Shown here piece after piece: positions 55,103-64,000 of a stretch of 64,000 bases of DNA. A program made the position numbers and the translations under genes. Positions within the stretch are counted from its first letter, which is position 1. Every line of letters begins with the position of its first letter. The notes under the pieces are model-generated. The model saw only the letters and a list, made by a program, of their open reading frames with translations, made no database searches and had not been told where the DNA came from. Location of the stretch: the NCBI GenBank assembly GCA_963844715.1, contig CAWJPJ010000008.1, positions 224,001 to 288,000 on the forward strand. The letters are read 5' to 3'. The DNA comes from an uncultured Phycisphaerales bacterium (GTDB taxonomy: Bacteria > Planctomycetota > Phycisphaerae > Tepidisphaerales > Tepidisphaeraceae).

Positions 55103-56029
55103 ATGGCGGGGCGTGTCTTTATTACCGGCGGGAGCGGATTTGTGGGGTCGGCCGTGGTCGGGGAGCTGGTCGGGCGCGGGTATGGGGTTAATGCGCTGGT
55201 GAACCGCAGGACGATAGCGGCGGGGGAAAATGTTCGGTTGATCCAGGCGAGCGTTTTTGACGGGGGGGCGCTGGATGAGGGGATGACGGATTGTCAGGCG
55301 GTGATTCATCTGGTGGGGATCATCATGGAGAAGCCTGGGGAGGGGATTACATTTCAGAAGATGCATGTGGAGGCGACGCGATGGGTTGTGGAGGCGGCCT
55401 GGCGGAAGGGGGTTCGGCGGTATGTGCATATGTCGGCGCTGGGGACGGGGGCGGAGGCGATATCGGATTATCACAAGACTAAATGGCGAGGCGGAGGAGC
55501 TTGTGCGGGGGAGCGGGTTGGATTGGACGATTCTCAGGCCGTCGGTGATTCATGGGGCGCGGGGCGAGTTTATGAAGATGGTGGCGGGGTGGGCGCAGGG
55601 GGACGAAGCGCGCCGTTTTTTTTCATGCCTTATTTTGGGAAGGGGTTGCTGGGGCGCGGGGGGGCGGGGTTGGTGCAGCCGGTGTATGTGGAGGATGTGG
55701 CGCGGGCGTTTGTGGATTGTTTGGAGAATCCTCGGACGAGCAAGAAGAGTTATGATTTGGTTGGGGCGGAGAGGATAACCTGGCCGGAGATGTATGGGAT
55801 TGCGGCGGAAAAGTTTGTGGGGAAGAAGAAGGCGGCAGTGGGGATTCCGGTTTGGTATGCGAAGTTGCTGACGAGGATTTTGCCGGGGGGGATGCTGCCG
55901 TTTAATCGGGATCAGGTGATTATGAGCGGGTTGGATAGTGTGGGGGATGGGGAGGGGTTTGAGAAGGATTTTGGGTGGAAGGGGCGGGGGTTTGCGGAGA
56001 CGTTGTCGGAATATTCTTATGGGATGTAA
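55103..56029 (+). CDS. NAD-dependent epimerase/dehydratase (NDUFA9-like SDR)
   Basis: TGGSGFVG, HLVGI, HMSALG, Y...K, QPVYVEDVA. Confidence 0.88.
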   Translation: MAGRVFITGGSGFVGSAVVGELVGRGYGVNALVNRRTIAAGENVRLIQASVFDGGALDEGMTDCQAVIHLVGIIMEKPGEGITFQKMHVEATRWVVEAAWRKGVRRYVHMSALGTGAEAISDYHKTKWRGGGACAGERVGLDDSQAVGDSWGAGRVYEDGGGVGAGGRSAPFFFMPYFGKGLLGRGGAGLVQPVYVEDVARAFVDCLENPRTSKKSYDLVGAERITWPEMYGIAAEKFVGKKKAAVGIPVWYAKLLTRILPGGMLPFNRDQVIMSGLDSVGDGEGFEKDFGWKGRGFAETLSEYSYGM

Positions 56030-59472: not shown

Positions 59473-59910
59473 ATGATCGCTGAACGGGAGAAGTCGATGG
59501 GGCGGTTTTCGGTAGAAGTGGATTTGGCGAACCACAAGGACCTGATTCTTGCCGAGGCGGGCGTCATTCCACCGGATCGAATACGACGGGTGCGCGTGCG
59601 TGGGGTCGTCGATACCGGCGCAGCCCGACTTATCATTCCGGGGTCGGTCGCACAGCAGCTTGGGGTGGATAGTTCCGGCACTGCAATGGTTCGGTATGCG
59701 GACGGACCCACGGCCGATCGCTTAATCGTCAAAGACGTGCATCTGACATACGGGGGACGAGAGAGCGTCTTCAACGCGATTGTTGAGCCGGATCGGGATT
59801 CGATTTTGATTGGGGCGATTGTGCTGGAAGATTTGGATTTTCTGGTGGATTGCATCGGGCAGCGGTTGGTGCCGCGCGATCCTAAGCAGATTGTTTCGGA
59901 AGCAGAATGA
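59473..59910 (+). CDS. Clan AA (retroviral-like) aspartic protease; alternative start 59497
   Basis: VDTGA catalytic motif, ADG flap, LIGAIVLE.LD..VD. Confidence 0.88.
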   Translation: MIAEREKSMGRFSVEVDLANHKDLILAEAGVIPPDRIRRVRVRGVVDTGAARLIIPGSVAQQLGVDSSGTAMVRYADGPTADRLIVKDVHLTYGGRESVFNAIVEPDRDSILIGAIVLEDLDFLVDCIGQRLVPRDPKQIVSEAE

Positions 59911-59913
59911 GGG

Positions 59914-60162
59914 GAAACCAGAAACCAGAAACCCGAAACCCGAATCAAGCCCGAATGCGCGAATGACTGAATGTTTAACTGGGGTGGCGGCCGGCGGGGT
60001 TCGGGACGCCGTGAATGACTAATGACGAATGATAAATGACGAATCAATGGTCGAATGATTGAATGACCGAAAGGGCCATTTCGTCATTTGGACCCGCCAC
60101 GGCGGATGCTGGCGCACATTCGGGTTTGATTGGGGATTCTGGTTTTGGGCTTCGGGTTTCCG
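59914..60162. repeat. GAAACC module, AATGAC array and inverted GAAACC module
   Basis: 59914..59973, 60013..60071, 60076..60162 (reverse). Confidence 0.85.
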
Positions 60163-60168
60163 CCGCGG

Positions 60169-61282
60169 TTATTTGATCTGGACTTCTTTTCCGGCGGCGG
60201 CGGATCTGTAGACGCCGTCTAGAATTTTCTGCACGGCCAGGCCGGCTTCGCCGGGGGCGCGCAACGGTTTGTTGTACAGGCAGGCGTCTGCGAAGTTTCT
60301 TAGTTTTAGGTCGAAGAGATAGGCGAAGTCTGTGCGGGGGCCGATGTAGGCGGGGGATTCGTTGACCAGGTGGGCGGCGCGGTCGGTGAAGATTTGGGGC
60401 GGGTCCCATTGGCAGCCGCCTTTTTCGCCCATGGCGGTGTAGTTCCAGACGTCTTCCTTGATGTGAGCGGCGAAGGAGGCTTCGATTTGCATGATGGCGC
60501 CGGTGTCGAAGCGGATTTGGGCAATGGCGAGGTCTTCTACGGTGTAGGTTTTATAGTCCCAATTGGGCCACATGGAGGAGACGTTGCTTTTTTTGTTGCC
60601 GAGGTAAGTCCAGGTGTTGGCGCTGGCGGCGACGGGGTTGGGGGAGCCTAGAAGGTCGTGGGCCATTTCGATGACGTGGACGCCGATGTCGATCATGGGG
60701 CCGCCGCCTTGGAGTTTTTTTTGGCCGAAGACGCCCCAGTTGGGGATGCCGCGTCGGCGGAGGGCCTGGCATTTGACGAAGAGGATTTTTCCGAAGCGGC
60801 CTTCGTCGCGGGATTGTCGTAGATATTCTGAATTGGGGTGGAAGCGGTATTGGAAGCCTACGGCGAGTTTGCGTTTGGATTTTTTTGCGGCGGCGATCAT
60901 TTTTTCGCATTGAGCCGGGTTCATGGCCATGGGCTTTTCTACGATGACGTGGGCAGCCGGCGAGGAGGGAGTCGATCGTCGGCTCGACGTGCAAGGCGTT
61001 GGGGGTGCAGACGGCGACGGCGTCGGGGGCGTCTTGCTTGAGCATCTGCTGCCAGTGCTCGTGGAGATTTTGGATGCCGAATTTTTCTTTCATTACCTTC
61101 AAGCGGTCGGGGTTGGGGTCGACGGCGGCGATGGCTTCTACGTCGGGCATCGATTGGAGGGAGCGGAGGACGGTTTCGGAGATTCCGCCGCAGCCTATTA
61201 TTGCTATCCGCAGTTTTCTGCCCGAATGTTTTTGGGCTTTGGGGGAGGCGAGAGATTCTGTTGAGACACTTTTTTCGGGCAT
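60169..61282 (-). CDS. Gfo/Idh/MocA oxidoreductase (frameshifted)
   Basis: IAIIGCGGI, CTPN..H, GGG.MIDIGVH, VEDLA. Confidence 0.92.
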
Positions 61283-61304
61283 TTTGGGCTCGGAGAAAAG
61301 AAAT

Positions 61305-61758
61305 TTTGCCACAGATGTAAATCAGATGGACACAGATGAAAATGCGAATTCACTCATTTTTTGAAGCGTTTTACCTCTACTTTTCTTGCGAAATTGATCA
61401 GGAGGCATAGGGGCATGCCGGTTGCGGCGAGATAGTTGAGGCATTGGGCGGTGTGGGCATCGTCGAGGGTTCTTACTGCTTTCAATTCGACGAGGATTTT
61501 TCCCTCGACGATCAGGTCGGCCAGATAATCGCCTACTACGACGCCGTCATAAATGACGGTGATATTCTTTTGCTGTTCGACGCGCAGCCCGGCTTTTCGC
61601 AATTCATGCACCATGGCGTTCTCATATACCCGCTCGGCAAATCCGCAACCCAGGACGTTGGCAACTTTATAAGCACAACCAATGATCTTCTCGGTTATCT
61701 CATTCAAATCTTCATGGTTTGTATTATCTGTGTCCATCTGATTTATATCTGTGGCAAA
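61305..61758. mobile_element. Putative inverted-repeat-bounded GxxExxY element
   Basis: 33-bp inverted repeats 61305..61337 and 61726..61758 (32/33 identical) enclosing one gene. Confidence 0.6.
61354..61737 (-). CDS. GxxExxY protein (PD-(D/E)XK nuclease-like)
   Basis: LGCGFAERVY, ADLIVEGKILVELK, AQCLNYL, LLINF. Confidence 0.93.
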   Translation of the reverse strand: MDTDNTNHEDLNEITEKIIGCAYKVANVLGCGFAERVYENAMVHELRKAGLRVEQQKNITVIYDGVVVGDYLADLIVEGKILVELKAVRTLDDAHTAQCLNYLAATGMPLCLLINFARKVEVKRFKK

Positions 61759-61767
61759 GAATACATT

Positions 61768-64000
61768 TCATTTCAGCTTCGCCAGTTCGGCTTCGGCCGC
61801 GGCTAGTTGGTCTTGGGTTTGTTTGACCAGGTGCGGCGGGGCTTTGGCTGTGTAGGATTCGTTGGCGAGGCGGGCTTTTAGGGTTTGGATGGTTTTCGTC
61901 AACTCTTCGCGGCGCTTGGCGGTTCGCTCTTCTTCGGCGCCTTTTTCGATTAGTGATCTCATGAAGATGTCGCAGCGGCCGGCTCGGGTGGATATCAGGG
62001 CGGCGTTGGATTGCTTTAGTTCCGCGTGTGTTTTGATTGCGCAGACGGCCAAGTTTTCGATCAGGGGGATCGCGTCTTGAGAGAGGGAGTCGGAGTCGTT
62101 CACGGGGACGATCGCGGCGTCGACGCTCTTTTTGGCGTCGATCTGTTGGGCGTTTTTCATTTCGCGGATGGTGGAGATGATTTCCTGGAGACGAGCGAAG
62201 GGTTCGAGAGATTCCTGGTCGATTTGGCCGGGTTTGGGCCAGGGGGCGCGGATGAGGCGGTGGCCGGGTTTGTAATCGGGGGCGGGGCGGGTTTCGTTGA
62301 GGCGGCTCCAGATTACCTCGGTGATGAAAGGGATCATGGGGTGCATGAGGCGGAGGGAGCCGTCGAGGATTGTGGCGAGGATGTTTGAGGTCTGGCCGGC
62401 GGCGGCGGGATCCTTTAGCGCGGGCTTGGCGGCTTCTACGTACCAGTCGCAGAAGTCGCCGTAGAAGAAGTCGTAACAGATTTTGGCGTATTGGTCGAAA
62501 CGATAAATTTCCAGGGCGGCGTTGGATTCCTGGACGGCGCGATTGAAGCGGGAGACGATCCAGCGGTCGGCCAGGGTCCATTTGGTCGGGTCGGGATTTT
62601 CGGGGGGGATTTTTTCCAGGTTGGGGATGACGAAGAAGTTGGCGACTTGCCAGATTTTGTTGCAGAAGCGGGAGCCGAGGTCGAATTTGTCGGAGGTGTT
62701 TCGGCCCTGGGCGTCGCGCTTGACGGGCATGCGGACGTCCTGGGTTTCTGTGGCCATGTGAGTGAGGGTGAAGCGGAGGGCGTCGGCGCCGTGGGTTTCG
62801 ATGACGTCGACGGGGTCTACGCCGTTGCCTTTGGATTTGCTCATGCGCTCGCCGTGGCCGTCGAGGATGGTGGGGTTGATGGCGACGTGGAAAAAGGGGA
62901 TTCCGAGTTCCTTTCCCCTCTCCCTGTCTTCCGATAGTTTCGGCACGAGTGGGTGAGGGGCGGTCTGCGCATTTCCGGCGGTCTGCCCCTCACCCCCACC
63001 CTCTCCCAGAGTACTGAGAGAGGGAGTAAGAGGGGGGCGGTGGCCCATGTTGTACATGCCGGTCATGACCATTCTGGCGACCCAGAGTGTGATGATGTCT
63101 CGGCCGGTGAGGAGGACGCTGGTGGGGTACCATTTTGCTAAATCCGGAGTCCGGTCGGGCCAGCCTAGTGTGCTGTGGGGCCAGAGGGCACTGGAAAACC
63201 AGGTGTCTAGGACGTCGGGGTCCTGTCGAAAGTTAAATGTTTCCTCTAAAATTCTCTCGATATCCTCGTGCCCGGGCGGAACGCACATGAAGCATTCCTT
63301 CTTTCCCTCGGTTTGCATCAGGATCGTAGGGATTTCGACACCGTTTATCGCGTGACCCTTAAGGATCCCTGATTCGCCATCGTTGTGCAAAAGAAAGTCC
63401 CTAAGGCCATATTGAGCAAAGGTGCCGCGCCACACCGGAATCCGATGGCCCCACCAGAGTTGTCTGGAGATTGGCCAGTCGCGTTTTTCGCCTAGCCAAC
63501 TTAGATACTGTTGCGCGTGGCGTTCTGGGAAGAATTTTATTGTGCCGTTGCGGACGACCTCGAGGGCGGGCTCGGCGAGGGGGGCCATTTTTACGAACCA
63601 TTGGTCGCTTAGGTAGGGTTCGACGGGGGTTTTGCTGCGGTCGCTGTGGCCTACTTGGGTTTCGTAGGGTTCTTCTTTTTCTAAGAGGCCCAGGGCCGTC
63701 AGGTCTTCGACGACTTTTTTTCTCGCGTGGTCTCGTTTCATTCCTGAATACGCGCCGGCGTTTTGGTTTAGGGTGCCGTCCGGGTTGAGGATGTTGATGA
63801 GGTCGATCTGGTCGGGTTTGTTTTGGTGGCGTTGCCAGACTGCGTAGTCGTTGGGATCGTGGGCGGGGGTGACTTTGACGACGCCGGTGCCGAATTTTGG
63901 GTCGACGAGGATGTCGTCGGCGATGATGGGGATTTTTCTTTCTGTGAGGGGGAGCTTTACGGATTTGCCTATGGCCCAGTTCCAACGCGGGTCTTCGGAA
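61768..64000 (-). CDS. valS: Valine--tRNA ligase (5' end outside window)
   Basis: GTGVVKVTPAHDPND, DWPISRQLWWGHRIP, DVLDTWFSS, RMSKSKGN, FCDWYVE, C-terminal coiled arm. Confidence 0.97.
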   Translation of the reverse strand, partial: SEDPRWNWAIGKSVKLPLTERKIPIIADDILVDPKFGTGVVKVTPAHDPNDYAVWQRHQNKPDQIDLINILNPDGTLNQNAGAYSGMKRDHARKKVVEDLTALGLLEKEEPYETQVGHSDRSKTPVEPYLSDQWFVKMAPLAEPALEVVRNGTIKFFPERHAQQYLSWLGEKRDWPISRQLWWGHRIPVWRGTFAQYGLRDFLLHNDGESGILKGHAINGVEIPTILMQTEGKKECFMCVPPGHEDIERILEETFNFRQDPDVLDTWFSSALWPHSTLGWPDRTPDLAKWYPTSVLLTGRDIITLWVARMVMTGMYNMGHRPPLTPSLSTLGEGGGEGQTAGNAQTAPHPLVPKLSEDRERGKELGIPFFHVAINPTILDGHGERMSKSKGNGVDPVDVIETHGADALRFTLTHMATETQDVRMPVKRDAQGRNTSDKFDLGSRFCNKIWQVANFFVIPNLEKIPPENPDPTKWTLADRWIVSRFNRAVQESNAALEIYRFDQYAKICYDFFYGDFCDWYVEAAKPALKDPAAAGQTSNILATILDGSLRLMHPMIPFITEVIWSRLNETRPAPDYKPGHRLIRAPWPKPGQIDQESLEPFARLQEIISTIREMKNAQQIDAKKSVDAAIVPVNDSDSLSQDAIPLIENLAVCAIKTHAELKQSNAALISTRAGRCDIFMRSLIEKGAEEERTAKRREELTKTIQTLKARLANESYTAKAPPHLVKQTQDQLAAAEAELAKLK
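62902..63042. repeat. In-frame pair of CCCCTCACCC hairpin repeats inside valS
   Basis: gggtgaggggc...gcccctcaccc inverted pair plus ccctctcccagagtactgagagaggg; 141 nt = 47 codons. Confidence 0.88.

Follow-up and report, generated by a model that had tools for sequence, protein, structure and literature searches.

Does a GxxExxY nuclease gene that lies between two inverted repeat arms, in a gap between two host genes, mobilise or maintain those arms, or is it only carried by them? The locus that raises this question is found in the genome of an uncultured Phycisphaerales bacterium (G000) and in the window, which is here the whole analysed stretch of 64,000 nucleotides (G000:C8:224001-288000). 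From the comparison of sequences, the nuclease is probably the mobiliser or maintainer of its arm family, and the best reading is a REPIN/RAYT-like system run by another enzyme class, its catalysis being predicted.

The unit begins with a left arm of family A on the plus strand (61305..61337), oriented into the element and composed of an outer head and three CAGAT units, followed by an AT-rich spacer on the same strand (61338..61353), seen in the sequence, which resembles by eye the loop starts of gene-less hairpins of families A and D. Next comes the 127-aa GxxExxY/PDDEXK_3 gene on the minus strand (61354..61737), recognised as an ORF and by profile matches, with its stop 16 nt inward of the left arm, and a right arm of family A, also on the minus strand (61726..61758). 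The inverted pair reported by the preliminary description encloses the ORF as claimed, the 33-nt arms being complementary at 32/33 positions (97%) and 388 nt apart, and the ATG indeed lies within the right arm. The CAGAT periodicity claimed for the arm is also present, but with a spacing of 11 and 10 nt rather than 9-10 nt. As had been noticed, the unit fills most of the gap between valS and the oxidoreductase (454 of 485 bases). The 3' part of host valS (61768..64000, minus strand, continuing beyond the window) runs in the same direction as the GxxExxY gene and ends 9 nt away from the right arm. The host Gfo/Idh/MocA oxidoreductase (60169..61282, minus strand) has its ATG (61282) 22 nt from the left arm. 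The arm pair is not a chance occurrence, because the profile of arm family A, the family of the window gene, has 34 matches in the genome and 0 in the shuffled genome, and the DNA fold of the element has a z of -6.1, none of 100 shuffles being equally stable. An in-frame ATG inside an arm recurs at 16 of 52 GxxExxY loci. A stop-codon test gave 27/38 upstream against 2/38 when shifted, but 18/38 on the far side too, and it is given little weight because stop triplets occur in the arm heads. The element has no Rfam match.

Both junctions are bridged by short-read contigs, from run X1 (61021-61631, 0 differences) and run X3 (61172-61377 and 61548-61783), within a set of four runs from one study, possibly the source sample; no contig joint skipping the element was seen in these four low-depth contig sets. 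The oxidoreductase has an apparent frameshift near 60955, which is probably an assembly error, because a contig of run X2 lacks one base near this position, the gene is intact in relatives and the corrected frame has 370 aa. Other window genes appear similarly broken (e.g., 55103-56029). In valS, positions ~62900-63050 hold an apparent in-frame Pro/Gly-rich insert, seemingly derived from a palindromic repeat, whose 11-nt word occurs 17 times in the genome. After the oxidoreductase, at ~59900-60170, there is a hairpin array of 7-mer repeats, with shorter variants in X2 and X4 contigs; the same kind is seen in the valS gap of three relatives (G001, G002, G019).

Regarding the fate of this junction in relatives, the 3' end of valS was searched in 40 of them and 29 relative loci were fetched. 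The order of valS and the oxidoreductase is kept in four relatives, and the GxxExxY gene is absent from the gap in all four; fixation of the gene across relatives, named beforehand as grounds against the mobility proposal, was thus found in 0/4. The gap holds a different, 7-mer hairpin in G001, G002 and G019 and is plain in G004, while gene-less hairpins of the GxxExxY type directly follow the valS stop in four other relatives (L050, L052, L057, L059). Occupancy also varies elsewhere. A GxxExxY unit fills G150:C43, and the equivalent in G166:C25 is a short gap in which one other arm remnant lies. At G166:C19 a unit is present where G138:C62 is empty, and G166:C19 also has a hairpin that, by eye, retains a GxxExxY 3' remnant in its loop. 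A clean empty site for a gene-less hairpin was not found in the G150/G166 comparisons, because the gaps carry different inserts.

The genome of the window has four PF13366 genes, the other three being 39-42% identical to that of the window, and each is flanked by its own arm family, namely A for the window gene, B for L002 (36 matches), C for L003 (35) and D for L004 (77), with 0 matches in the shuffled control for each. All four families are arrays of the 7-nt unit C-R-C-N-R-A-K behind a T/A-rich head. After two weak A matches were dropped and B was recounted by pattern (34), 178 arms were retained for pairing, and 50 neighbouring pairs form tail-in gene-less hairpins of 77-195 nt, 40 arms being single. 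The two arms are of the same family in 49 of the 50 hairpins, and none of the 50 lies inside a crudely called gene. Arms of one sequence family thus enclose either the gene or a plain loop, and units of both kinds are present in this genome. Some D hairpins adjoin or sit within further composite arms. There are also 12 head-to-head pairs, 11 of them of family D with a 7-10-nt A/T spacer (C3:38380, C3:39463, C5:71316, C6:238826 and seven more), which could be circle-junction products.

Whole hairpins have been copied to unrelated sites without target duplication. Two 136-nt copies (C6:240116 and C6:635418) are near-identical through both arms and the loop, their homology stopping at the arm heads and their flanks being unrelated; the hairpins at C6:373228 and C6:850956 belong to the same subfamily. 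The lack of a clear target-site duplication, first remarked at the window unit, extends to the hairpins, as direct repeats of at least 5 nt flank 5 of 49 (10%), against 7% of shuffled pairings. Fold-back copying of one arm from the other was also considered and is not supported, since the two arms of one hairpin resemble each other no more closely than arms of different hairpins (p 0.2-0.4 in all four families). Separately, the pair L102/L103 was considered as a transposition and rejected, being one locus present twice.

The footprint of an insertion can be seen in G163, where three elements, 90-95% identical, interrupt a coding stretch that we take to be Rhs-like by its repeat pattern and of which an uninterrupted paralog exists. 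The anchors are 87 nt apart in the empty state and 545-546 nt in the filled state, with ~36 target bases replaced, nothing duplicated at the site, and the replaced 36 nt bearing words that resemble both arm heads, in inverted orientation, one at each end. This suggests that insertion may replace ~36 nt between arm-head-like motifs, as read from one paralogous case in another subclade, in which the paralog need not be the true ancestor. A gene-less hairpin in G163 has the right junction in common with the gene-bearing elements; the copies in G163 agree at this junction and differ at the left.

The enrichment of inverted repeats around other members of the family, anticipated by the preliminary description, is present for most of them. 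From 108 loci, picked by similarity to the window protein or as best Pfam matches, 15 were dropped before counting and 93 had full matches and usable flanks; an inward inverted repeat (score at least 12) encloses 76 of these 93, and 17 have no clear inverted repeat. Among 600 control ORFs there are 8 with such a repeat, and among 2000 mismatched flank pairs 7%. Among 201 genomes of the class, the protein is matched in 138, and a generic three-unit arm pattern, whose reversed control has a median of 1, gives a median of 42 arm matches (up to 570) in the 138 genomes that have the gene and of 4 in the 63 that lack it. At least 20 arms are present in 103/138 gene-positive and 9/63 gene-negative genomes. 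Arm density follows the GxxExxY genes with a rho of 0.71 over the 201 genomes, and none of 10000 within-family permutations reaches the contrast, kin genomes not being independent in these statistics. An arm pattern of period 10 occurs in 24/201 genomes, 23 of them gene-positive. Gene and arms co-vary across genomes and, as described below, along the protein tree.

The same genomes bear on the leading alternative, in which the hairpins owe their movement to a different enzyme (a Y1 transposase of the RAYT type, or host repair) and the GxxExxY gene is cargo, perhaps a toxic nuclease silenced by the arms. Y1 genes are present in 175/201 genomes and correlate with arms (0.34), and Y1 elements can occupy the same niche, as one syntenic operon gap holds a GxxExxY unit in G166 (L179, C23) and G124 (L189, C148) and a Y1 element with its own REP-like arms in G150 (L185, C96) and G138 (L186, C90). 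Moreover, arms persist in five arm-rich genomes with Y1 and without a PF13366 match at E≤1 (G203, G201, G177, G136, G218; 43-126 arm matches, 92-97% complete). However, the partial correlation with arms is 0.68 for GxxExxY given Y1 and 0.20 for Y1, and arms lie within 400 nt of 49/58 GxxExxY loci of the class but only 1/35 Y1 loci; they lie as near to 23/40 GxxExxY loci from other taxa, which the pattern fits less well. Without GxxExxY, the median is 4 arms whether Y1 is present (n=49) or absent (n=14), whereas the median is 18.5 in the 12 genomes that have GxxExxY but lack Y1. In G000, the five Y1 genes (L005-L009) carry terminal repeats of their own, unlike the GxxExxY arms, and PADLOC gave no match for the two proteins tested. 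This alternative is therefore unlikely. As side observations, L006 and L007 look like near-identical copies, and G203, with 126 arm matches, 97% completeness and 30 contigs, has repeats that may be orphaned or served by another partner enzyme.

The protein itself matches PF13366 (E 1e-41) and TIGR04256 (E 9e-42), with 142 bits against cut-offs of 35 and 22, conserves G32, E35 and Y38, and in the matches to the window ORF only PF13366 was found. Its nearest named relative, at 69%, is from a Tepidisphaeraceae genome, in keeping with a probable planctomycete host. Across 136 alignment rows K86 is invariant, and G30, G32, E35, Y38, D74, E84, Q98, Y102, N115, F116 and R124 are at least 90% conserved, giving the arrangements E84-x-K86 and Q98-x-x-x-Y102. 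Such acidic-D-ExK residues and the QxxxY helix we take to be motifs of the Cas4, lambda exonuclease and RecB-type enzymes. PDB sequence searches retrieved no relative of the window protein; its structure model (pLDDT 92.9) has Cas4 SSO0001 as the best Foldseek match (E 9e-4), followed by alkaline exonuclease, lambda exonuclease and Hjc, and VIA gave Z 8.1-8.2 and rmsd 2.3-3.5 over 85-98 aligned residues for three chains, with no standout. The top structural matches are all of the PD-(D/E)XK fold, which agrees with the fold first ascribed to the family, and the protein is predicted to have a Cas4/lambda-exonuclease-like PD-(D/E)XK core with conserved catalytic-type residues. The modelled core resembles Cas4, lambda exonuclease and RecB-type nucleases (4ic1, 3syy, 1avq, 3u44). 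Unlike Cas4, the protein has 127 aa, with a best Z of about 8, no Fe-S cysteines stand among the invariant or near-invariant columns of the GxxExxY alignment, and no CRISPR/cas context was seen at the locus, the neighbours being valS and the oxidoreductase. The gene is under purifying selection, with a dN/dS of 0.07-0.13 in 4 of 12 pairs, the other 8 being saturated at synonymous sites. A phage vehicle is not supported, because a viral-contig scan for GxxExxY gave a single weak, partial match. In the accessible parts of earlier reports, PF13366 is listed with the function 'Unknown' and many transfers (PMC3424549), and a GxxExxY gene was called cas4 by another tool (bioRxiv 10.1101/2021.01.26.428298).

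The fold also admits an enzyme that acts at the RNA or repair level, by stem processing or cruciform resolution, and is kept because hairpins exist, without moving them. Hjc resolvase and splicing endonucleases are among the fold neighbours, the arms are predicted to fold as RNA into a long stem in which the start codon is paired, and the hairpins lie outside genes, with some excess in gaps between convergent genes (16/50 vs 308/1728); in addition, co-occurrence does not give direction. This account leaves unexplained the new hairpin copies with precise ends, the insertion of the gene into new gaps and coding DNA, and the crossing of phyla by gene and arms together, as L004 groups with two Verrucomicrobiota proteins, L127 and L132 (support 100), whose arms are similar, which suggests from sequence that gene and arms may have been transferred as one. 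It is slightly less likely than a Y1 mover.

The relation between arms and proteins can be followed in a quick tree of 92 proteins and 121 columns, with many open forks. Its 28-row side has 20 G-ending arm labels and 2 T-ending, and its 64-row side 39 T-ending and 1 G-ending, 30 of the 92 rows being unlabelled and the support of the split being 89, unstarred. The sole G-ending exception on the T side, L122 (Chloroflexota), is a chimera that combines an N-terminus of the T clade, on the side of a GAT arm, with a C-terminus of the G clade, on the side of a downstream GAG arm. The most clade-diagnostic columns are 115-119, with a two-residue insertion, and also 27, 36, 40 and 101. Two further records, L140 and L141, are titled Borreliella garinii and come from a cave-type MAG, the label being doubtful. 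Arms next to a gene would be expected to mirror the gene tree through physical linkage by itself. In a genome-wide comparison, made with clade profiles trained partly on the tested genomes, a T-only pattern and kin that are not independent, G-clade genes account for the density of non-T arms (t 12.6) more than T-clade genes do (t 1.9), and the density of T arms is related to T-clade genes (t 6.2) and to G-clade genes as well (t 4.1). Among genomes with at least 10 arms, T arms make up a median fraction of 0.51 in the 14 T-only genomes and of 0.07 in the 65 G-only ones. The tracking of protein clade by arm type is thus real and the match leaky, as at least 20 T arms are found in 16 genomes classed G-only, and non-T arms are numerous in G125, G018 and G150, which lack a G-clade gene. 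That the arms are recombination or slippage hot spots, spreading by homologous or microhomology exchange with cassettes swapped and the nuclease merely stimulating breaks without sequence specificity, is quite improbable, for although the L122 chimera, mixed and nested arm clusters, the common right and different left junctions in G163 and the leaky clade matching fit it, 49/50 hairpins are of one family though four families are interspersed, and it is the G-clade genes, far more than the T-clade genes, with which G arms vary.

Returning to the nuclease as mobiliser or maintainer, the window unit would be the member that carries the gene within a family of short hairpin elements. Its nuclease is likely to recognise its own family's arms and to cut them, by which the hairpins would spread. 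The gene would lack a promoter of its own and be expressed by read-through from the upstream operon, and pairing of the start codon within the RNA stem of the two arms would keep expression low. With the least certainty, a metal-dependent site formed by E35, D74, E84 and K86 might nick an extruded hairpin or cruciform at the heads, head-like words at the target or an existing arm might be nicked too, and host repair might then join the unit by microhomology, removing a few dozen target bases and duplicating none. A single nuclease of 127 aa is not known to have a joining activity. Nick-and-repair chemistry at the arm heads specifically is put forward as a doubtful proposal.

Several known systems resemble this unit in part. 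Intervening sequences of 23S rRNA that bear an ORF have it in the loop of a long RNA stem and encode a four-helix bundle; unlike them, the unit described here lies between protein genes and carries a nuclease. The analogy with RAYT that was drawn at the outset fits, in that each repeat family has a single gene and many hairpins without one, and in that genes and repeats are found together from genome to genome. As far as the accessible text of the reports goes, REPIN-RAYT systems and REPtrons likewise have inverted doublets forming extragenic hairpins (PMC3116915, PMC3337134, PMC3733652), one distinct short gene per repeat family with several systems per genome, a gene under purifying selection and the same intergenic niche. 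The doublets are seen here as 50 tail-in hairpins among 178 arms, with 40 singles and 0/50 in called genes, and the genes as four distinct single-copy genes with four arm families, a pairing that is leaky across genomes. According to the same portions of those reports, the REPIN-RAYT enzyme is an HUH/Y1 transposase, whereas here it has the PD-(D/E)XK fold, and the arms are palindromes tagged GTAG or CGTC, whereas here they are arrays of a 7-nt unit and the GTAG/CGTC terminal tag is absent from the arm heads of families A-D. Since enzyme class and tag differ, the unit does not belong to the REPIN-RAYT systems. Furthermore, unlike RAYT as far as described there, the GxxExxY gene often lies in the loop of one hairpin, is not tied to one locus, and seems to have passed between phyla together with its arms.

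MITEs with autonomous IS partners, or TIRtrons, are similar in their terminal inverted repeats and in having gene-bearing and gene-less copies, as given in the available part of the source (PMC3733652), and one gene-less copy here has a gene remnant in its loop. By that partial account, the units differ from MITE/IS pairs in having no DDE or Y1 transposase and no target duplication; no DDE transposase was found inside the units examined, and assignment to MITEs fails because target duplication is absent. Finally, the Rpn/YhgA-like PD-(D/E)XK 'transposase' family was suggested to favour the movement of DNA, and its members were subsequently reported to be toxic proteins of defence (PMC5350276, PMC10400941, in the accessible text). 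It is of the same superfamily as GxxExxY and a different Pfam family, and an arm partner is not evident in that text. In a search that left subscription journals and supplements outside, no description linking GxxExxY, PF13366 or TIGR04256 to repeats was found, and mobile DNA of this kind would apparently be undescribed.

To this, the locus adds four systems in one genome, a Y1 control, a clade-by-arm test and one empty-site footprint. It is a tentative thought, somewhat short of an even chance, that GxxExxY proteins at large are the mobilisers of a widespread class of mobile DNA, in which a stand-alone Cas4-like PD-(D/E)XK nuclease would replace the DDE, HUH, tyrosine or serine enzyme, clades would read the last base of the 7-nt unit through a few near-C-terminal residues, insertion would occur at head-like targets by replacement without duplication, and four systems would run side by side in one genome. 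The PF13366 family gains a concrete candidate substrate, and the four proteins and four arm families of a single genome are a ready test of specificity. If the enzyme does move the hairpins, it would transpose DNA by a chemistry that belongs to none of the known enzyme classes, and would account for an abundant repeat class, with a median of 42 and up to 570 pattern matches in the gene-positive genomes of the class. The family is also an independent setting in which to ask how populations of repeats are maintained over time, together with the single-copy enzymes that belong to them.
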